Below, piece by piece: positions 4,614 through 21,266 of a DNA stretch of 64,000 nt. Under the pieces are notes generated by a model that did not search any database, had not been told where the DNA came from, and saw only the letters and a program-made list of their open reading frames with translations. How positions within the stretch are numbered: the first letter of the stretch is position 1; every line of letters begins with the position of its first letter. The stretch comes from an uncultured Pseudomonadales bacterium (GTDB taxonomy: Bacteria > Patescibacteriota > Microgenomatia > UBA1400 > CAYXSR01), in assembly GCA_964430265.1 (NCBI GenBank), contig CAYSEI010000002.1, positions 20,769 through 84,768 on the forward strand. Reading direction: 5' to 3'. The position numbers and the translations under genes are program-made.

Positions 4614-5093
4614 GTGAAAAGGATACTGCCCTTAACTATCTTATTGTTTCTAATATTTACTTCTGTATCTTTTGCTGCCGGGTTTAGTTTAAAATCAATT
4701 AATGGTGTAAGTACGGACGGAACCTGGTCATCTCAATGGTATCATACTGACTTACAGCCGACACTTAGCGGAGATGCACCAGCAGAAACTGAATTAAAAA
4801 TTCTAGTTGACGGTCAGGAATACACAACTACAGCTACAGATGAGGGTCAATGGTCCTGGACGGCACCTGAGTCTCTTTCTGCGGGAGATCATAATATGGT
4901 TTTACAAAACAGCGGAGGAGAAATTAGTTTTACCTTAACGCTGGGTGAAGAAAATGTAGATACAAATAAGTTTGCTTCAGGTAGTGGTAGTAAAATGCCT
5001 ACTGTGGGTATAGTCAGTCCTACTTTTTTTCTTTTAGGAGCAGGGACAATTCTATTGTTAATGCCCAAATTAAAAGAAGTTCTTCTTAAATAA
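4614..5093 (+). CDS. Small secreted Ig-like surface protein with a C-terminal sorting signal (MPTVG-IVSPT + TM + basic tail). GTG start.
   Basis: A signal peptide is present. The C-terminus KMPTVGIVSPTFFLLGAGTILLLMPKLKEVLLK carries the same motif seen in the ORFs ending at 34411 and 37543. Confidence 0.55.
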   Translation: MKRILPLTILLFLIFTSVSFAAGFSLKSINGVSTDGTWSSQWYHTDLQPTLSGDAPAETELKILVDGQEYTTTATDEGQWSWTAPESLSAGDHNMVLQNSGGEISFTLTLGEENVDTNKFASGSGSKMPTVGIVSPTFFLLGAGTILLLMPKLKEVLLK

Positions 5094-5122
5094 ATAACAT
5101 TTCCTGATAAAATAAAGGGGAA

Positions 5123-5926
5123 ATGTTTAGATTTTTTAAAAAATACCAAGCTACTTTTAATACCCAAATCAAAAATACCTTTGTTTACAGAGGAATGCTA
5201 ATAATTTGGATGATTGGTTGGTTATTATCTTTTTTAACTTCTGTCTTTCTCTGGAATTCTGCCCAAACAAAAGGAAGTTTAGCCGGTTTTACTAAGGACC
5301 AAATTATAAGTTATTATTTTATTGGTATGTTTGTCTGGCAGGTAGTTGGATGGTTTCCGTTTTATACAATAATAGAGAAAATAAGAAACGGAGAAATATC
5401 TAATATGGTTATAAAACCAATCAATTTTTATTGGTATATGTTTGTTCAAGAGCTTGCTTGGCACGTAGTTAATACTTTTATTTTTTCTTTATTGTTGTTT
5501 TTTATCTTTTTTTTAGTTAGAGCTAATCTTTTTTTGCAGTTTCAATTATCTAGTGTTTTCCTCTTTATCTTAGCTTTAGCAATTGCTGCTTTTATTGTTT
5601 TTGGGATGTCTATGATTTTAAGCACACTGGCTTTTTGGTTAATTCGTGCACAAGGAGTGGCTTCTTTATTTTGGATTCTTTTGTCCCTTTTAGGAGGGCA
5701 AATGCTTCCATTACGTTTTTTTCCCAGCCAATATCAGACTTTTATCAATATTACTCCTTTTAGGTTCATGTATTCTTTCCCTATTGAAATTCTCTTGGAA
5801 GATATGGGTAAAAATGAACTAATTTATTCTTTTTCCTTGGGAATTTTTTGGGTAATATTTTTTTACTGGCTTTTTCATTTATTATGGCAAAGAGGATTAA
5901 AAAATTTTACTGCCTGGGGAAGTTAA
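5123..5926 (+). CDS. ABC-2 family transporter permease (ABC2_membrane_6-like).
   Basis: Six TM segments. The N-terminus FKKY...NTFVYRG and overall architecture resemble ABC-2 permeases. No ATPase is adjacent. Confidence 0.55.
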   Translation: MFRFFKKYQATFNTQIKNTFVYRGMLIIWMIGWLLSFLTSVFLWNSAQTKGSLAGFTKDQIISYYFIGMFVWQVVGWFPFYTIIEKIRNGEISNMVIKPINFYWYMFVQELAWHVVNTFIFSLLLFFIFFLVRANLFLQFQLSSVFLFILALAIAAFIVFGMSMILSTLAFWLIRAQGVASLFWILLSLLGGQMLPLRFFPSQYQTFINITPFRFMYSFPIEILLEDMGKNELIYSFSLGIFWVIFFYWLFHLLWQRGLKNFTAWGS

Positions 5927-6721
5927 ATGAGGATCAAAAGGTATTTAAAACTGTTTTTGGAGTTTTTTAGATTTAGTTTTAAGGCTGATATTGAATTTCG
6001 CGGTAATCTGATATTTTATACAATTGAAAATATTTTGTGGCTGATTTTAGCAGTTGTAGGTATAAACTTAATATTCGGACAGATACATTCAATTGCAGGT
6101 TGGACAAAAAATGAAGTTTTTTTAGTGTTATTTATTGGTGCATTGTTTAGTGATTTATCTTGGACTTTAATATTTCGAAATTTAAACAAGTTTTCTCAGC
6201 TAATAAGAGAAGGAACTTTAGACTATTATCTTTTGAAACCTACTAACTTGCGTTTTTTACTATCTTTTCGAATCATAGAATTTGATCACTGGATAAGAAT
6301 TGTTCTGGAATTATTTTTAATTTATAAATACACACTTTTAACTAGCGGGTATTTATCATTTTTAAACATATTGTTATTTATTTTTGTTTTTATCTGCGGT
6401 TTTATTATTTTTTATTCAATATTTTTTGCAGCAACAATAACTAATATCTGGTTTGTTAAACTGGAAAACTTGGTTCATTTGTTTCAAAATATAAAAAATA
6501 TGGGTGATCGCCCGGTATATATTTATAAAAAAGGTTTTTTATTCTTTTTTTCCTTTATTCTGCCAATTGGATATATTGCCACCTTTCCTGCTCAGGCTTT
6601 GATGGGGGAAATAAGTACAATAAAATTAATTGCTGGTCCTATTTTGGCAATATTTCTTTATTGGCTATCGCATAGATTTTTCAAATTCGCCTTAAAATAT
6701 TATTCGTCAGCTTCAAGCTAA
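5927..6721 (+). CDS. ABC-2 family transporter permease, partner of the 5123 ORF.
   Basis: The IREGTLDYYLLKP motif is a hallmark of the ABC-2 permease family. The protein is polytopic. Confidence 0.6.
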   Translation: MRIKRYLKLFLEFFRFSFKADIEFRGNLIFYTIENILWLILAVVGINLIFGQIHSIAGWTKNEVFLVLFIGALFSDLSWTLIFRNLNKFSQLIREGTLDYYLLKPTNLRFLLSFRIIEFDHWIRIVLELFLIYKYTLLTSGYLSFLNILLFIFVFICGFIIFYSIFFAATITNIWFVKLENLVHLFQNIKNMGDRPVYIYKKGFLFFFSFILPIGYIATFPAQALMGEISTIKLIAGPILAIFLYWLSHRFFKFALKYYSSASS

Positions 6722-6744
6722 AACTTAGTATTAAACCTGTTAAC

Positions 6745-6772
6745 TTGACAAAAAATAGTAAAAGAGTATAAT
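6745..6772 (+). promoter_or_regulatory. Near-consensus sigma70 promoter TTGACA-16-TATAAT upstream of the DUF134 operon.
   Basis: Both hexamers are perfect in the sequence. The promoter lies about 45 nt upstream of the 6818 start. Confidence 0.45.
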
Positions 6773-6817
6773 AAGTTATGAACCATAGTTCAAAAGTTAA
6801 TTGATTAAATTAAAAAC

Positions 6818-7327
6818 ATGGTAAGACCAAAAAAACCAAGAACAATATCGCAAAAACCAAAAAACAGGTATTTCAAGCCTCGCTCTGTCCCATTGAATAA
6901 ACTGGAGCAAATAGAGCTTAAATTTGAAGAGCTGGAAGCGATTAAACTAGCTGATTTGAAAGATATGACGCATCAACAAGCATCGAAATTAATGAATATT
7001 TCTCGGCCAACGTTTACAAGGGTATTACAGTCAGCACGTTATAAAGTTGCCAAGGCGCTTAATAATGGCCAGGCAATTGAAATTAAAGGAGGTGAATATA
7101 AAATGAGTCCAAGAGGAAGAGGGTTTGGTCCAGGAAAAAGACAAGGTAGAGGTAGAGCAGCTGGTGGAAGAGGAAGAGGTAGGATGGGAGGACCTTTTGC
7201 AGCCGGTCCAGGGGGAAAATGTGTTTGCACAAATCCGGACTGTAAAAATGAAATAGAACATTTAGTAGGACAGCCCTGTTATCAAAAAAAATGTCCTAAG
7301 TGTGGAAGTCCAATGGTAAGAGAATAA
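6818..7327 (+). CDS. DUF134/UPF0251 predicted DNA-binding protein with a C-terminal Arg/Gly-rich (RGG) tract and a four-Cys zinc-ribbon extension.
   Basis: FKPRSVP...LKFEELEAIKLADL...ISRPTFTRVLQSARYKVAKALNNGQAIEIKGG matches DUF134 end to end. The tail GRGRAAGGRGRGR...CVCTNPDCKN...CPKCGSP is an add-on. Confidence 0.8.
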   Translation: MVRPKKPRTISQKPKNRYFKPRSVPLNKLEQIELKFEELEAIKLADLKDMTHQQASKLMNISRPTFTRVLQSARYKVAKALNNGQAIEIKGGEYKMSPRGRGFGPGKRQGRGRAAGGRGRGRMGGPFAAGPGGKCVCTNPDCKNEIEHLVGQPCYQKKCPKCGSPMVRE

Positions 7328-7365
7328 GTACAATTTAATAAAATATTAAAGAAGGGATTGCTGAT

Positions 7366-7752
7366 ATGACAAAAATTGCAATTGCAGCAACTGGGAATAG
7401 TAAACAAGATCAAGTAGATTCTCATTTTGGCAGGTGTCCGTATTTTTTCTTTGTCGACACTGAAAATGAAGAATATCATGCAGTTGAAAACCAGGCACAA
7501 AAAGCTTATGGAGGTGCGGGAATTTCAGCAGCTCAATTGATTGTTGATTCAAAAGCTGAAGCAGTGATAACAAAAAATATTGGGCCCAAAGCAGTTAGTG
7601 TTTTAAGTCAAACAGATGTAGATATATATCTGGCAGAGAAAGAACAAAATATTGAGCAAGCACTTAATGCCTTTAAAAAAGGTAAACTGGAAAAAATAAT
7701 AAAAGCAAATGTAGACATGGGAAGAGGCGGAAGAAGTAGAAAAAGTATTTAA
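7366..7752 (+). CDS. NifX/NifB-like dinitrogenase FeMo-cofactor-binding domain protein (Nitro_FeMo-Co family).
   Basis: HFGRCPYFFFVD, a central GGAG and the C-terminal VITKNIGPKA are typical of this domain. Confidence 0.8.
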   Translation: MTKIAIAATGNSKQDQVDSHFGRCPYFFFVDTENEEYHAVENQAQKAYGGAGISAAQLIVDSKAEAVITKNIGPKAVSVLSQTDVDIYLAEKEQNIEQALNAFKKGKLEKIIKANVDMGRGGRSRKSI

Positions 7753-7818
7753 ATTATTAAATAGAAAATATTAAAGTTTTGTAGATTTAAAAGAACTTAA
7801 TTATCAAATAAGGGAAAA

Positions 7819-9072
7819 ATGAATAATATAATGCAACTCAAAAAAGGTGAAAAGGTAGCACGCTCAGCCTTGATTTTAGAATCAATCTTGGCTGCAAGCA
7901 AAGCTATTGTCGGATACTTAAGTGGTAGTTTGGTTTTAATATCGGATGCAGTTCACAGTGCATCTGATCTTTTGCCTATTTTTGCCAGCTATTTGGGATT
8001 AAAAATTGCACAAAAAGATCCGGATGAGAAGTTTGCTTACGGATATTATAAAGCGGAAAATATTGCTTCTGCTATGGTTTCTGTATTAGTCCTTTTTGCC
8101 GGATATAAAGTTATTAGTTCTGGAATAAATAACCTGGATAAAATATCCTCCCCTAATATTCCTTTTATTGCTATGGCGGTGTCATTAGTAGATGCAGTTG
8201 TGCTTTTCTTTTTTGGTAAGTATGAAATTAAAGTGGCGGAGGAAATTAATTCAAACAGTTTAAAAACCATGGGTAAAGAAAACCGTACTCATATTTTTAC
8301 TTCTTCTACTGTGCTTGTGGGTATTTTAGCCAGCTACTTGGGAATTCCTTATTTAGAAGGAATATTTACAATCGGAATTTCCTTTTTAATATTTGAAATT
8401 GGGTTGACTTCAGGAAAGGATGCAATATTGGCTTTAATGGATGTTGTTCCGCAAAAAGAAATTGAAGAAAAAATTGCAAAAGCAATTGCTTCAGTTCCAG
8501 GAATTGAGGAATATTATGATTTAAAATTAAGACGTTCAGGACCATATATTTTAGGTGAAACTAAGGTAGGGGTAAGAAAATCGATTGATGTTAAAAAATC
8601 TCACGAAATCTCTGAAAAAGTGGAAGAAGCTGTTAAAAAAGAAGTTCAAGTAGTAGATTCTTTTACAGTTCATGTTGAACCGTTCAAAAGTGAGTATCAA
8701 CACCTTGTTTTACCAGTTAAGAGCAAAAAGGGTTTGCAAGCAGAAATTGCTCCCCAATTCGGCAGAGCTGCGTATTTCCTTTTTGTTAATTTGAAAAAGA
8801 ATGAAGTTAAAGGACATTTTACAACTGAAAATAAATATAAAAATAAAAAGGTTAGAGCTGGATTGGAAGCTGCAAAAATGATTGTACAAAAGAAGAGTAC
8901 TGCAGTTATAACTAGTGAGATGGGTGAAATTACTTTTCATTTTCTTAGGGATAATCTTTTTGATATTTTTAAAACAAGTGATAATAAAGCAGAAGGTGCA
9001 ATTGGAAAATTTAAAAAAGGACAATTAGAAATGTTGAAGCAGCCTACTAAGAAAGCAGAAGGAAATGAATAG
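7819..9072 (+). CDS. Cation diffusion facilitator (CDF) transporter fused to a C-terminal NifX-like (Nitro_FeMo-Co) domain.
   Basis: A CDF transmembrane domain (HSASDLL, six TM) and a CDF C-terminal domain are followed by QFGRAAYFLFVN...AVITSEMGE, which resembles the 7366 ORF. Confidence 0.8.
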   Translation: MNNIMQLKKGEKVARSALILESILAASKAIVGYLSGSLVLISDAVHSASDLLPIFASYLGLKIAQKDPDEKFAYGYYKAENIASAMVSVLVLFAGYKVISSGINNLDKISSPNIPFIAMAVSLVDAVVLFFFGKYEIKVAEEINSNSLKTMGKENRTHIFTSSTVLVGILASYLGIPYLEGIFTIGISFLIFEIGLTSGKDAILALMDVVPQKEIEEKIAKAIASVPGIEEYYDLKLRRSGPYILGETKVGVRKSIDVKKSHEISEKVEEAVKKEVQVVDSFTVHVEPFKSEYQHLVLPVKSKKGLQAEIAPQFGRAAYFLFVNLKKNEVKGHFTTENKYKNKKVRAGLEAAKMIVQKKSTAVITSEMGEITFHFLRDNLFDIFKTSDNKAEGAIGKFKKGQLEMLKQPTKKAEGNE

Positions 9073-9895
9073 AAAAAAAACTAAGAAAATTGCAATTACC
9101 GGAGGAAAAGGGGGAACAGGAAAATCAACTTTTTCTGTTTTATTAGCCAACAAATTATTATCAAAAGGTAAAAAAGTTGTTTTAATAGACGCAGATATTG
9201 AATGCCCCAATGATTACTTGTTATTAGGGGTTAAACTAAAAAATTCAGTAAAAGATATTAAAGCTCAATTTCCGCAATTGAACAAAGAGCCTTGTACTAA
9301 ATGTGGTAAATGTGTTTCCCAATGTCGATCCAATGCAATATTTCAAGCTCCGGGGAAGTATCCGATTTTTATCAGGGAATTATGTTCGGGTTGTGGTTTG
9401 TGCTGGCATATTTGTCCGGAAAATGTAATTGAAGTAGAAAAGGTTGTAATCGGAAAAACTTATGTTAATAAAATAAATTCTGATTTTACTCTTGTAACCG
9501 GAAGGTCAGTAGGAGTAGTGGATGAAACCGGACCGATTGTTACCAGTGTTAGGGAATACGTAGAAAAAAATTTAGATGCAGACATTATTTTAATAGATAC
9601 TTCGGTTGGATTGCACTGCGGTGTGATTCGTGCCTTAATTAATACTGATCTTGTTTATGCTGTTACTGAACCTACTCCTTTAGGAAAGCATGATTTACAG
9701 CTTATTCTTGAGCTGATTAATAAACTTGACCTTAAAAAGAAAGTGGTTGTAAATCAGGCTGATTTAGGGGATCAAACTCTTATTGACCCATTGATAAAAA
9801 AATATCAAACAGAAATCAGTTATAAAATTCCTTACTCAAAAAAATTAGTTGGTATGTATTCTCAAGGAAAATTAGGAGATTTAAACTTTTTATGA
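9065..9895 (+). CDS. MinD/ParA-superfamily P-loop ATPase with an inserted 4Fe-4S ferredoxin domain (COG1149-like).
   Basis: Walker A GGKGGTGKST. Two CxxCxxCxxxCP clusters (CTKCGKCVSQC, CSGCGLCWHICP). The start overlaps the upstream gene by 8 nt. Confidence 0.8.
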   Translation: MNRKKTKKIAITGGKGGTGKSTFSVLLANKLLSKGKKVVLIDADIECPNDYLLLGVKLKNSVKDIKAQFPQLNKEPCTKCGKCVSQCRSNAIFQAPGKYPIFIRELCSGCGLCWHICPENVIEVEKVVIGKTYVNKINSDFTLVTGRSVGVVDETGPIVTSVREYVEKNLDADIILIDTSVGLHCGVIRALINTDLVYAVTEPTPLGKHDLQLILELINKLDLKKKVVVNQADLGDQTLIDPLIKKYQTEISYKIPYSKKLVGMYSQGKLGDLNFL

Positions 9896-10770
9896 CAAAA
9901 AAAATAGCAGTTGCCTCTGGAAAAGGAGGAGTTGGTAAATCAATGCTAGCTTCTTCTTTGGCTTTATTACTTAGTAAGAGCAATAAAATAGTTGCTGTTG
10001 ATTGTGATGTTGATGCTCCCAATCTACATCTTTGGCTTGGGCAAAAAGAAGATTGGCAGGAAACAAAAAAAATTTCCACAAATGAAATTCCTGTAATTGA
10101 TAAAGAAAAATGTGCTTTATGCGGAAAATGTGTCTCAATTTGTGCTTTTGATAGTTTATCAATTGAAAACAAAGCTGTTAAACTGAATAAATTCTTTTGT
10201 GAGGGTTGTGGGGCTTGTGAAGCTGTGTGTCCGCAAAATGCAATTAAAATGAAAAAAATTCAAAACGCAGAAATCAGAATAAAACATGATGTTTTTGGTT
10301 TTCCTTTGGTGTCAGCCCAACTCTATCCAGGAGAAACAGGGTCAGGAAAAGTTGTTGAAGAAATAAAAGAGAAAGCAAAAAATTTTGAAAAAGAAATAAT
10401 GCTTATTGATTCTCCTGCAGGGACGGGATGCCCGGTTATAGCAGCTTTAAACGGGATAGATTTTGCAGTTTTAATAACTGAGCCAACGCCGTCAGGTCTT
10501 TCTGATCTCAGACGGGTATTACAAGTAGTCGATCATTTTAATATTCCTTTTAGAGTAGTAATCAATAAATGGGATATAAACAAACAAGTGACCAAAAAGA
10601 TTGAAAATGAATTTCAAGAAAAAATAATTGGTAAAATTTCTTATAACAAAAAATTCTTTCAAGCAATAGCCGAATTAAAACCAATAATGAAAACTAAGCT
10701 TCAGACAAAAAAGGAAATTAAATCAATATATAAAAATTTGGAGGCCTCGACCGGAATCGCACCGGTGTAA
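9892..10770 (+). CDS. Second MinD-like P-loop ATPase with a ferredoxin insert, paralog of the 9065 ORF.
   Basis: SGKGGVGKS Walker A. CALCGKCVSIC and CEGCGACEAVCP clusters. It overlaps the previous gene by 4 nt (ATGA). Confidence 0.8.
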   Translation: MTKKIAVASGKGGVGKSMLASSLALLLSKSNKIVAVDCDVDAPNLHLWLGQKEDWQETKKISTNEIPVIDKEKCALCGKCVSICAFDSLSIENKAVKLNKFFCEGCGACEAVCPQNAIKMKKIQNAEIRIKHDVFGFPLVSAQLYPGETGSGKVVEEIKEKAKNFEKEIMLIDSPAGTGCPVIAALNGIDFAVLITEPTPSGLSDLRRVLQVVDHFNIPFRVVINKWDINKQVTKKIENEFQEKIIGKISYNKKFFQAIAELKPIMKTKLQTKKEIKSIYKNLEASTGIAPV

Positions 10771-10813
10771 CTGGTTTTGCAGACCAGTGCATAAACTTCT
10801 CTGCCACGAGGCC
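10739..10813 (-). tRNA. tRNA-Cys (anticodon GCA), with U73 discriminator and an encoded CCA. The D-loop and T-loop are atypical.
   Basis: A GC-rich island sits in AT-rich DNA. On the minus strand there is a perfect 7-bp acceptor stem (GGCCTCG/CGAGGCC) and U8. The D-stem is GCAG/ATGC. The anticodon stem CTGGT/ACCAG carries loop CUGCAAA (U33, GCA, A37). The variable region is 4 nt. The T-stem is ACCGG/CCGGT with loop TGCGATT, followed by TCCA. G at position 55 and a single G in the D-loop are unusual. Coordinates are +/-2. Confidence 0.55.
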
Positions 10814-10876
10814 TTTCCTGTATATTTTATCACGCTTTCTTGTCAAGGCAAAATAACTGTGTTATTATCTATTTGA

Positions 10877-11838
10877 TGAAGCTCAGAAAGATTTTTTCTA
10901 TTTTAACCCTTTTTTTATTGACTTTCCTTCTTACGGGTTGTAATTTGCCTTTTATTGGTTCCAAAAAAAAGGCGGCACTACAAGTTATGTCTGAACCCAA
11001 AGCAACAGTATTTTTAAATGGTAATCATGTTGGTCAAACTTCATATTTTGATGAAGAACTTAAGCCTGGAGAATATACCTTAAAATTAATTCCGGAAGGT
11101 CAAGAAAACAAACAGTGGCAAAAAGATGTGCAATTAACTCCGGGCGTCTTAACAGTTGCCAATTACAATTTTAAAGAAACTGAAGAACAGTCAAATGGAT
11201 ATTTACTTAGTTTGGAACCGATTTCCCAAAAAGACAAGGCTCAACTTTCTATTATTAGTATGCCTGACGGAGCAGTTGTTTCTGTAGACGGAGAACCAAA
11301 GGGCTTTACACCTTTGTCATTGGATGAAGTAAATGAAGGGGAACACGTAATTAATATTTCCACTCCGGGATATCAAGAAACAGAAATTCAAGCAAAAACA
11401 ATAGCCGGATATAAACTCATTGCTAATGTGCAACTTGGTAGAAGTTTAGAAGAAGAAGCAACGGATTCTGCAGAAACTGATGAAGAAGCAACAGCATCAG
11501 CAGAAAAAGAGGATGCTGAAGATGAAACAATAGAAGAAAGTGACACTGAAGAAGAAACAACTACGGATACAGAAGAAACAGATACAGAGGAAGATGCACA
11601 AGTTTCTGATGAAGATATGGAAAGGCCGTATGTAGAAATAAAAGAAACTTCTACAGGTTGGTTAAATTTAAGAAGTGAACCTTCAACAGCTGAAGGAGAC
11701 GAAACAGTAATTAAAAAAATAGATCCCGGAGATAAATATCCTTTTATAGAGGTTAATGATACGGGTTGGTATAAAATAGAGTATGAAGAAGGAAAAGAAG
11801 GTTGGATTTCAGGAAAATACGCTGAATTGTACCGCTAA
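10877..11838 (+). CDS. Lipoprotein with PEGA domains, an acidic linker and a C-terminal SH3b-like domain.
   Basis: The lipobox LLTGC follows the internal Met (the track ORF starts 36 nt earlier at a TTG). PEGA-like segments (PEGQEN, MPDGAVVSVDGEPKGFTPL). A D/E/T-rich tract. A C-terminal TGWLNLRSEPS...WYKI...GWISGKY SH3b-type fold. Confidence 0.65.
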
Positions 11839-17982: not shown

Positions 17983-19413
17983 TTAAGAGATACGTGGGAA
18001 AAGAGGCTTTTCAGGAGACTTTATTTGTTTTCCTGTAAACACTTTTACAATTTTTTCTGCTGTTTCAGGAAGAAAAATTTTTATTGCGGAGCTTAATTTT
18101 AGGATTTCTTCACTTAAAGATAATAACAATGTCTTCAACTCTTTTCCTTCTTTTTCCCATGGTTTTTGTTTGTCAATTCTTTTATCCAGTTTTTTTACAA
18201 TTTTCCAGGTTTCTGTAATGGCCTTGTTAAATTCATAACTTTCAATGTATTTTGAAACCTTATTTTCTGTAGTGTAATAATTATAAACTGGATCAATTCC
18301 CTTTAGTTTTGCAATCTGACAAAGTTTGGCAGTTCTTTGAACCAGGTTACCCAATCCATTGGCAAGATCGGCATTATATACTTCTTCAAAATGTTGATAT
18401 GTAAAATCTCCGTCCCTTGTAGGAGGAATTTCTTTAAGAAAATAATAGCGAACTGCGTCAGTTCCATATTTATCTACTAATTCTTTAGGACTAATCACGT
18501 TTCCCAAAGATTTACTCATTTTTTGTCCGTTTGAGTTAATGAATCCGTGAATTAGTATTTGTTTAGAATTCTTTAATCCGGCTGACATTAGCATTGCCTG
18601 CCAAATTGCGGATTGCTGTCTGAGATTGTCTTTTCCTGCAACTTGAAAAGCAGGCCACCATTTATTAAATTTATCCATATTTTCAGGCCAACCAATAGTG
18701 GAAATGTAGTTTACTAGTGCATCAAACCAGACATACATAACATGTTTAGGATCACCGGGGACCTCTATTCCCCAAGGCATTTTTTCTTTTAGGCGGGAGA
18801 TGGAAAAATCTTTTAACCCGGATTTTACAAATTTCGTAATCTCTTTTAAACGGTGTTGAGGAACCACAAATTCAGGATTTTCTTTATATAGTTCTAAAAG
18901 TTTATCTTCGTACTTTGAGAAGCGAAAAAAATAGTTTTCTTCTTTATAAATTTCAATTTCTTTATTAGGATGAAGAGGACAGCGCCCGTTTTTAAGTTCA
19001 GATTCTGTTTTTTCCATTTCACAGCCGACACAGTATTTAATTTTTTGTTTTGCTTTGTAAATATCACCTCTTTTTTTACAGATTTTCCAAAATTTTTTGG
19101 CAGCTTTTATGTGTTGTTTTTGTGTTGTTCTTATAAAATTATTAAAATCCAGATTAAGAAGCTTTTTTAGTTCTTTAAATTTTTGTGAATATTGGTCTAC
19201 AAATTCCTGCGGAGTCTGGTTTGCTTTTTCTGCTTTCCGAGTTATTTTAAGTCCGTGTTCGTCAGTTCCCGTATTAAAAAACACATTATTACCTTTTTCT
19301 TTATGGTATCTTGCCAGGACATCCGCTTGGATGATTTCTAGGGCAAAACCAATGTGGGGTTCTGCATTTACATAAGGAAGGGTAGTAGTAATATAATAAT
19401 TATTTTTACTCAT
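17983..19413 (-). CDS. metG: Methionine--tRNA ligase.
   Basis: HIGH-like PHIGFALE and KMSKSLGN motifs. The CxxC...C knuckle CVGCEME...CPLH. Confidence 0.9.
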   Translation of the reverse strand: MSKNNYYITTTLPYVNAEPHIGFALEIIQADVLARYHKEKGNNVFFNTGTDEHGLKITRKAEKANQTPQEFVDQYSQKFKELKKLLNLDFNNFIRTTQKQHIKAAKKFWKICKKRGDIYKAKQKIKYCVGCEMEKTESELKNGRCPLHPNKEIEIYKEENYFFRFSKYEDKLLELYKENPEFVVPQHRLKEITKFVKSGLKDFSISRLKEKMPWGIEVPGDPKHVMYVWFDALVNYISTIGWPENMDKFNKWWPAFQVAGKDNLRQQSAIWQAMLMSAGLKNSKQILIHGFINSNGQKMSKSLGNVISPKELVDKYGTDAVRYYFLKEIPPTRDGDFTYQHFEEVYNADLANGLGNLVQRTAKLCQIAKLKGIDPVYNYYTTENKVSKYIESYEFNKAITETWKIVKKLDKRIDKQKPWEKEGKELKTLLLSLSEEILKLSSAIKIFLPETAEKIVKVFTGKQIKSPEKPLFPRIS

Positions 19414-20219: not shown

Positions 20220-21266
20220 TTAATTAATAAAAGGGATTTTCTTTTTTAGGTCCAGCCATTTCCAACGCAAATTGTTGAGGGTTGTATAAATTTGGTATTT
20301 TGCCGGGTCCAAAATTAGGTCATAAGTACCCACAAATTCAATTAATTGAGGCTGATAGCCTTCTTTAAAACGGTGAAACCCATACCATGGATGGTCAGGG
20401 TCGGGATTAGGTCCAAGACTGCCCCACATGTCAAAGGTATGGCAGCCGATCTTTTTACCATATTTTATTACTTCCCACATCATTAGGTTAGACGGCATTT
20501 TTTTTCTATGTTTTCTGGAAGAGGCTCCATAAGGATAATAAATTACATTATTAAAAACAAAAATAACCCAAGTAACAACAGTTTCCCCTTCACATACTGC
20601 TTTAAAAAGTCGAGCAATTCCTTTTGGTTGTAATGTTTCCCACATTTGTTTATGATATTTTTGATTGTGAGCATAAAAACCTTGTCTGGATGTAGTTTTG
20701 CCCATTAGTTTTAAATATTCTTCAAAGGCTTGATCTGAATTATCTTCAACAATCTTAACACCGTTTCTTTTGGCATAGCGGACGTTGTAGCGTGTTTTTG
20801 ATTTCATATCCATCAAAATTTCTTCTTTGTCTTTAGTTAAATCAATTTGGAAAGTATAGTGTGTAAAATGAGGTCTGCCTTTTACAGCTCCTTGTTTCTT
20901 AAAAAATTTTTGGGTTTCTTCGAATTCAGGATTTGTTTGTTTTTGATCAGCAGGCTTGCCTATGTTTGGTTCAAATTTATAAAAAATACAACTTTCCTCA
21001 TTGCCTATTTTTTTTAATGCATTGATAAAATTTTCATTTATGGCATTGCATTTAGGAACATAAGCGATCTGATAATCAACTTTTGGTAGCGGGTGTAATG
21101 TAAACTGCAAACCATTTACGATTTTATCGTTTTCAAAAGCACCCAGTCTAATTGGCATAACACCGGTCTTTTTCCTGAATTCACCCCATTCCCAAGTTTG
21201 CAATGGATGATTAACAGTTTGATTAAAAGCTTCTTTTTCTTCTGGATAAATTTTGCGGACAATCAT
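20220..21266 (-). CDS. FemAB-family aminoacyltransferase (peptidoglycan interpeptide bridge formation).
   Basis: The N-terminal Q.WEWGEFRK and the C-terminal YYPYGASSRKHRK...MWEVIKYGKKIGCHTFDMWG match FemABX signatures. Confidence 0.65.
   Translation of the reverse strand: MIVRKIYPEEKEAFNQTVNHPLQTWEWGEFRKKTGVMPIRLGAFENDKIVNGLQFTLHPLPKVDYQIAYVPKCNAINENFINALKKIGNEESCIFYKFEPNIGKPADQKQTNPEFEETQKFFKKQGAVKGRPHFTHYTFQIDLTKDKEEILMDMKSKTRYNVRYAKRNGVKIVEDNSDQAFEEYLKLMGKTTSRQGFYAHNQKYHKQMWETLQPKGIARLFKAVCEGETVVTWVIFVFNNVIYYPYGASSRKHRKKMPSNLMMWEVIKYGKKIGCHTFDMWGSLGPNPDPDHPWYGFHRFKEGYQPQLIEFVGTYDLILDPAKYQIYTTLNNLRWKWLDLKKKIPFIN

Follow-up and report, generated by a model that had tools for sequence, protein, structure and literature searches.

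The window analysed here, meaning the whole 64,000-nucleotide stretch of contig CAYSEI010000002.1, carries a gene for a cysteine tRNA whose D and T loops depart from the canonical pattern at the tRNA elbow. The only tRNA that ARAGORN called in the 64 kb is a tRNA-Cys(GCA) and occupies 10739-10813 of the minus strand, and the Rfam tRNA model RF00005 matched 10742-10813 of the same strand across its full length (model positions 1-71) with a score of 60 bits, the gathering threshold being 29 (E = 1.8e-10). Both results agree with a preliminary description of this DNA, which had proposed the same span and had drawn attention to a GC-rich island in AT-rich DNA (57% GC in the tRNA element, 32% in the whole window), a 7-bp acceptor stem, U8, the anticodon loop CUGCAAA, the discriminator U73 and an encoded CCA, all of which are present in the sequence. 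The tRNA reads GGCCUCG-U-G-GCAG-AGAAGUUU-AUGC-A-CUGGU-CUGCAAA-ACCAG-UUAC-ACCGG-UGCGAUU-CCGGU-CGAGGCC-U-CCA. Its acceptor (7/7), anticodon (5/5) and T (5/5) stems are fully paired, as expected of the perfect cloverleaf that had been claimed for it, but the D stem consists of three Watson-Crick pairs and a G13.A22 mismatch, so that the cloverleaf falls just short of perfect; a mismatch at 13:22 is known also in E. coli tRNA-Cys. The preliminary reading of the loops was accurate, in that the T loop UGCGAUU has G at position 55 and the D loop, with G15 and a single further G, has no GG dinucleotide. The features of the locus are collected in Table 1.

Table 1. Features of the tRNA-Cys gene and of neighbouring genes (window coordinates).
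Feature	Position	Strand	Detail or basis
tRNA-Cys(GCA) gene, 75 nt including CCA	10739-10813	-	ARAGORN, Rfam RF00005, homologue alignment
Encoded CCA	10739-10741	-	sequence
Discriminator U73	10742	-	sequence
T loop UGCGAUU	10755-10761	-	U54 10761, G55 10760, C56 10759, G57 10758, A58 10757
Anticodon loop CUGCAAA	10776-10782	-	sequence, ARAGORN
Anticodon GCA (34-36)	10778-10780	-	sequence, ARAGORN
D loop AGAAGUUU	10793-10800	-	A14 10800, G15 10799, A16 10798, A18 10797, G19 10796, then U20, U20a, U21; register from Rfam alignment, canonical tRNA-Cys comparison and 19:56 covariation
Promoter-like site TTGCCT-16 nt-TAAAAT, TG before TAAAAT	10824-10851	-	consensus scan; ends 10 nt upstream of the tRNA 5' end
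CbiA/MinD-type P-loop ATPase open reading frame, two 4Fe-4S motifs	9892-10770	+	convergent with the tRNA gene
DUF134 gene	6818-7327	+	first of a four-gene conserved cluster, 6818-10770
Cation-efflux protein fused to a Nitro_FeMo-Co domain	7819-9072	+	cluster 6818-10770
First CbiA/MinD ATPase with 4Fe-4S motifs	9065-9895	+	cluster 6818-10770
Methionyl-tRNA synthetase (MetRS)	17983-19413	-	
FemAB-family gene	20220-21266	-	Pfam PF02388, E = 1e-31; between PcrA and MetRS

Comparison with homologues provides the framework for judging whether this gene encodes a functional tRNA. Across 60 distinct tRNA-Cys that share A18 and G55 with the window gene, 99.4% of the cloverleaf cells are paired and double-sided changes are seen in 16 of 22 pairs, giving a covariation score of 0.63 where shuffles give 0.15 and slid registers at most 0.09; the slid registers pair 29-42%, and none of 500 shuffles reached the observed pairing or covariation score. 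The comparison with relatives that the preliminary description had proposed therefore reveals conservation with compensatory changes in the stems. U73, the GCA anticodon and A18/G55 are invariant in all 60 sequences. The bacterial cysteine identity elements have been reviewed by Giege and Eriani (2023; PMC9976931), and the window tRNA carries the listed set, namely the GCA anticodon, U73, G2:C71 and C3:G70, because of which cysteinyl-tRNA synthetase (CysRS) should charge it. Canonical bacterial tRNA-Cys (E. coli, RF00005) have these elements and the cloverleaf in common with it, together with a non-Watson-Crick 13:22, U8, A14, G15, G19:C56, U54-A58 and an encoded CCA, and differ from it in having G18/U(Psi)55 (Psi, pseudouridine) for A18/G55 and, in the case of E. 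coli-type tRNAs, a G15:G48 Levitt pair for its G15:C48 (variable region UUAC). Saccharimonadia tRNA-Cys carry G48 (UUAG). Since the G15:G48 element is kept in only few bacteria (PMC9976931), it does not define the family of bacterial tRNA-Cys. Nor is the encoded CCA a conserved feature, being absent in two relatives (L218 and L049; L-numbers are the labels of the collected sequences and loci). Transcription of the minus strand would probably start at a promoter-like site that belongs to the gene and lies just upstream of it, with 5' maturation expected from RNase P and with the CCA already encoded. We are confident that the gene is a genuine, working-looking tRNA-Cys of Patescibacteria with a coupled A18/G55 elbow and a trivial overlap with the ATPase gene. 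Its role is most likely in ordinary translation, given that it is an orthologue of canonical tRNA-Cys and that phages carry it in their tRNA sets.

The nature of the elbow depends on the register in which the D loop is numbered. According to the preliminary description both the G18-Psi55 and the G19-C56 tertiary pairs would be altered, and AGAAGUUU taken alone can indeed be numbered either way; if its single further G were G18, with U at 19, both pairs would be lost and the elbow would be loosened or otherwise built. We consider this unlikely, as several comparisons converge on the other register. The Rfam alignment sets the D-loop A-G onto model positions G18-G19, and a canonical tRNA-Cys D loop of equal length with the same anticodon arm (AGUGGCUU against AGAAGUUU) likewise places G18 over the A and G19 over the G. 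The variant D loops of orthologues (AGAAGUUU, AGGAGUU and AGUAGCCCA) have A-G as the sole dinucleotide in common, and C56 accompanies the G of that dinucleotide in 60/60 variant tRNA-Cys, as it does in the window gene. The register is further validated by Watson-Crick covariation under the same numbering, as positions 19 and 56 of the distinct tRNAs in our data set, including other tRNAs of the same contigs, form G:C in 311 cases, U:A in 10 and A:U in seven. The U19:A56 form occurs in tRNA-Gly(GCC) of ten sequences (L119, L130, L141, L142, L144, L149, L173, L193, L195 and L217), where the D loop AGUUGUUUA pairs up with the T loop UUAGAGU, and the A19:U56 form in tRNA-Ala(GGC) (L016, L121), tRNA-Asp (L115), tRNA-Val (L230) and a Cyclobacteriaceae tRNA-Cys (L097), where D loops ending in ..GAU.. 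pair up with T loops of the type UUUGARU. The numbering thus indicates that G19:C56 is retained and that one tertiary pair is changed, from G18-Psi55 to A18/G55, the canonical G18 and U(Psi)55 both being missing from the window tRNA. U54 and A58, the partners of the reverse-Hoogsteen pair of the canonical elbow, are present as judged from the letters. Among the 60 variant tRNA-Cys the 54:58 pair (columns 56 and 60 of alignment A1) is U:A in 31, A:U in 27 and G.G in two; we also observed that the A:U class has G48, and with it the E. coli-like G15:G48 Levitt pair, and that the U:A class has C48.

The relationship between positions 18 and 55 was surveyed in 715 tRNAs, 436 of them distinct, from 246 sequences gathered in three samples. 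The first came from scanning a single genome of each GTDB species, with ACTGGTCTGCAAAACCAGT, the anticodon arm, as query and the D and T loops left free. This sample was mostly Bacteroidota and served as a source of canonical controls, not of close relatives, its Bacteroidota tRNA-Cys combining the D loop AGUGGCUU with the T loop UUCGAAU or UUCAAUU, that is, canonical GG with UUCRANU. It also contained eight Saccharimonadia tRNA-Cys with the D loop AGAAGUU and the T loop AGCGUUA or GGCGGUA, and one tRNA-Cys (L049) with the window's D arm and UGCGAUU on different acceptor and T stems. The second was a metagenome scan set by D loop and anticodon with the T loop unconstrained, and its 113 tRNA-Cys (55 distinct) have G at T-loop position 2 in 113/113. 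The third was anchored on synteny with MetRS and was therefore blind to tRNA sequence. In the tally, for which the D region was taken generously because the ARAGORN D-loop calls were short for about 30 tRNAs, 340 of the 436 distinct tRNAs have GG with U55-C56, 70 have G55-C56, every one with A-G at 18-19, two have A18 with U55 and none has G18 with G55. In two of the 70 G55 tRNAs the D loop is AGGAG, with its GG at positions 15-16. Cysteine accounts for 65 of the 70, phenylalanine for three, and glycine and histidine for one each: the tRNA-His, on a viral contig (L231, 2794-2868), combines AUGCAGUA with UGCAAAU, the three tRNA-Phe (L176/L240, L177 and L186) combine AGUUAGUA with GGCGGAA, UGCGAAU or UGCAAUU, and the tRNA-Gly(GCC) (L204) combines AGGAGUA with UGCGAAU. 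Neighbours of the variant tRNA-Cys on the same contigs, for leucine, alanine and isoleucine, are canonical. The combination occurs independently in four isoacceptor families and is reversed at the orthologous locus of one relative (L220, below), and G18 with G55 is absent; these patterns speak for a genuine structural link between positions 18 and 55. The two A18/U55 carriers are a tRNA-Trp with AGUAGUA and UUCGAAU (L165) and a tRNA-Phe with AGGAGAUA and UUCAAAU (L164). Such tRNAs are possible evolutionary intermediates and suggest a mutational path by way of A18/U55.

Orthologous loci place this coupling in an evolutionary context. The best named homologues of the window's MetRS belong to Candidatus Woesebacteria, Pacebacteria, Amesbacteria and the 'Patescibacteria group', because of which the window is assigned to a Microgenomatia-like genome of the Patescibacteria (candidate phyla radiation, CPR), the affiliation that the preliminary description had assumed. 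In the MetRS-anchored sample, four relatives carry their tRNA-Cys at the locus next to PEGA and UbiA genes. L218 (MetRS identity 72%) has AGAAGUUU with UGCGAUU, L222 (64%) has AGGAGUU with UGCAAAU, L224 (65%) has AGUAGCCCA with UGCAAAU, and L220 (69%) has AAGUGGAAA with UUCGAUU and is fully canonical. The 18/55 state therefore flips between close relatives at an orthologous locus, and in this sample both positions always change together. Searches of the window proteins against the pattern-derived loci with tblastn recovered synteny only on the PEGA-UbiA-MraY side (L106, L135 and L187), with no ATPase neighbour. The variant elbow is common to Saccharimonadia and relatives in Microgenomatia, and it recurs on one contig of 64% GC and in the tRNA clusters of IMG/VR viral contigs. 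The 64% GC contig (L115, Ga0102962_1000022, 99 kb) holds 43 tRNA genes for all 20 amino acids within 6.6 kb (4826-11457), and its single tRNA-Cys is the sole G55 tRNA, with A18, among the 43; a comparison of ten open reading frames flanking this array with PHROGs gave no match. Six IMG/VR contigs (L230, L236, L242, L243, L244 and L245; 38-39% GC) carry clusters of about 20 tRNA genes in which the sole tRNA-Cys is of the Saccharimonadia type, AGAAGUU with AGCGUUA, and the other tRNAs are canonical. Together, this distribution supports the view that A18/G55 is a coupled, lineage-conserved alternative and not damage. On the IMG/VR viral contigs a 96-nt tRNA-Ile(UAU) call adjoins the tRNA-Cys. A tRNA-Ile(UAU) is found also on L049 (CAYPXO010000003.1, 76,806 bp), together with a Microgenomatia-type tRNA-Cys and a MetRS 66% identical to that of the window (P0016); this sequence, labelled 'uncultured Pseudomonadales', is probably a misbinned or mislabelled CPR contig.

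A structural precedent for the A18/G55 combination exists outside tRNA. G18 of a canonical elbow inserts between residues 57 and 58 and touches Psi55, which is described as 'universally conserved', and the G19:C56 pair makes up the flat outer face that the ribosome, RNase P and T-boxes recognise (PMC4810234). Lehmann et al. (2013) described interdigitated T-loop modules of the form AGNNA...UGNNA in the L1 stalk, RNase P and T-box stem I, in which an adenosine fills the 4/5 gap and has as its trans Watson-Crick/sugar-edge partner the G that is conserved at position 2 (PMC3664808). The UGCGA of the window tRNA together with A18 reproduces this sequence pattern of U-G-N-N-A plus an adenosine placed to intercalate, and G55 and A18 are coupled in 70/70 G55 tRNAs. 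By analogy, A18 would intercalate between G57 and A58, and the covariation suggests that it would pair with G55 in the same trans Watson-Crick/sugar-edge fashion. The elbow could then be regarded as a UGNNA-type solution transplanted to tRNA, with the G19:C56 face intact and U54-A58 kept. The modules of the 23S rRNA L1 stalk, of RNase P (J11/12-J12/11) and of the T-box stem I apex have the same pentanucleotide with G at position 2, but they receive their intercalating A from a second T loop, whereas in the window tRNA it would come from the D loop in a predicted geometry. Saccharimonadia tRNA-Cys differ again, as their T loops (AGCRU, AGCRUUA) are without the terminal A, unlike UGNNA, and have 54:58 swapped to A:U or, in a few, G.G. 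A further consequence concerns modification. TruB needs U55 and TrmH needs G18, and it follows from these established enzyme specificities that the tRNA cannot carry Psi55 or Gm18 (2'-O-methylguanosine 18).

Several points weigh against this overall interpretation. The A18.G55 geometry is derived from sequence covariation and analogy. Two of the three samples were picked by tRNA sequence patterns and many of the sequences are related, so that the counts overstate the number of independent events. The survey covered loci and contigs and no complete genome, which leaves room for a second, canonical tRNA-Cys. The promoter is a consensus match in a region with four such sites where 1.9 are expected. 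Finally, the minimum-free-energy fold of the single sequence (z = -2.3) is without the D and anticodon arms of the cloverleaf. Minimum-free-energy folds that miss cloverleaf arms are common among tRNAs, and the covariance model and the comparative data, not such folds, were used here as the criterion for the cloverleaf.

The simplest reading of why tRNA-Cys in particular carries A18/G55 is that small genomes which evolve fast have drifted, with compensation, at a tRNA whose codons are rare. The 19:56 swaps, frequent in the same contigs, fit a generally fluid elbow. We find it doubtful, though worth stating, that A18.G55 is instead a selected, tRNA-Cys-specific signature in Patescibacteria, a T loop of the rRNA and RNase P type that would make tRNA-Cys refractory to Psi55 and Gm18 and would act as a determinant or anti-determinant for a partner. 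Candidate partners would include CysRS, a FemAB-like aminoacyl-tRNA transferase, a tRNA-targeting toxin or a phage factor, and a signature of this kind, if true, would explain both the copying of the variant by tRNA clusters on viral contigs and its persistence across deeply diverged classes.

A second alternative, which we judge very unlikely, departs from ordinary translation altogether and holds that this is a non-proteinogenic tRNA that escapes the ribosome and donates cysteine elsewhere, for example to the enzyme of the FemAB family whose gene lies 10 kb away. Enzymes of this family build peptidoglycan bridges from aminoacyl-tRNAs, and their genes are present in the window and in six MetRS-syntenic relatives (L218, L220, L224, L226, L227 and L228). 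There is a bacterial precedent in the non-proteinogenic tRNA-Gly isoacceptors of Staphylococcus aureus, whose D and T loops are non-canonical and which supply peptidoglycan synthesis by FemXAB; these staphylococcal tRNAs are without G18, G19, U55 and C56, their D loop having U18U19 or C18U19 (PMC4574755). The staphylococcal NP1, NP2 and NEW are, like the window tRNA, natural bacterial tRNAs without the canonical D- and T-loop nucleotides. However, they coexist with proteinogenic isoacceptors and serve the cell wall, whereas the variant tRNA-Cys shares a syntenic locus with the canonical tRNA-Cys of a close relative and is thus an orthologue and not an extra copy. No second tRNA-Cys was found in any of the 246 sequences, which comprise loci, contigs and tRNA arrays and no complete genome, and the variant is the only tRNA-Cys both in the IMG/VR clusters and in the 43-tRNA array. 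The retention of G19:C56 and the compensatory nature of the 18/55 change are likewise unlike the staphylococcal tRNAs. The last alternative, a tRNA pseudogene or remnant, or GC-rich hairpins that act as a terminator for the convergent ATPase operon, which the preliminary description had also entertained, can be invoked from the off-consensus D and T loops, the position at the 3' end of that operon and the modest single-sequence fold, but it is scarcely credible and is effectively refuted by conservation, given the 60-bit Rfam score, the intact stems with extensive compensatory changes and the invariant U73, GCA and A18/G55 in 60 homologues, the different 3' neighbours in relatives and a scan of both strands around the tRNA that found no terminator-like site.

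The broader significance of these observations lies in the elbow, as the gene itself is an ordinary tRNA-Cys and its notable part is A18/G55, a state conserved throughout the tRNA-Cys of Patescibacteria and present in the tRNA clusters of viral contigs. Cytosolic tRNAs are taken to have Psi55, in contact with G18, as a universal feature (PMC4810234). The A18/G55 combination represents a natural, recurrent and tightly coupled alternative. Throughout a large bacterial radiation it is fixed in the tRNAs of a single amino-acid family, and it arises independently in tRNAs for phenylalanine, glycine and histidine. As such, it amounts to a clean double-mutant cycle of the tRNA elbow provided by evolution, links the tRNA T loop to T loops of the UGNNA type in rRNA, RNase P and T-box RNAs, and predicts tRNAs unable to receive Psi55 or Gm18. 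Our literature search found no description of an A18/G55 tRNA elbow variant, an absence that is not proof of its being unpublished. The findings are relevant to tRNA structural biologists and to annotators, for whom such tRNA genes should not be flagged as pseudogenes and who should be aware that gene callers can run a coding sequence into the antisense strand of a tRNA.

The ATPase gene provides an example of the latter. The preliminary description had noted that the tRNA overlaps the 3' end of this coding sequence on the opposite strand by about 30 nt, and the overlap amounts to 32 nt (10739-10770), with the end of the ATPase reading frame lying antisense within the tRNA gene, no earlier in-frame stop, and a TAA stop codon (10768-10770) that is the complement of tRNA U44-U45-A46. 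In L218, the closest relative with the same order of genes, the ATPase orthologue is 71% identical and ends 4 nt outside the tRNA; because it stops before the tRNA, the overlap is not conserved. Homology between the two proteins ends at residue 283, which is where the overlap starts, and their tails (EASTGIAPV against VRVIE) are unrelated. This comparison indicates that an upstream stop codon was lost, so that the reading frame now runs nine extra codons into the antisense strand of the tRNA, and the 32-nt overlap is a recent local accident with no evident function. An exact-protein look-up of the ATPase returned only a 998-bp Logan contig with the same reading frame and tRNA. A search for a duplicated tRNA 3' end, as would be left by an integration scar, recovered only the tRNA gene itself.

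The surroundings of the tRNA gene vary among relatives. Elsewhere its 3' neighbour is an M23 peptidase gene (L106 and L224) or a NUDIX gene (L222), and in L218 (18658-19068) and L222 (19539-19964) the PEGA gene and the tRNA are separated by an HSP20 gene that is absent from the window; the tRNA-Cys neighbourhood is a rearrangement hot spot. Within the four-gene cluster that ends with the ATPase, overlaps of 8 and 4 nt join the last three genes, and the part made up of the two ATPases and the cation-efflux (CDF) gene is found also in L218 and L219. The FemAB-family gene has one or two copies in each of the six MetRS-syntenic relatives, at 8150-9196 in L218, 1161-3104 in L220, 2644-4498 in L224, 1279-3023 in L226 and 3312-5188 in L228, and also in L227.

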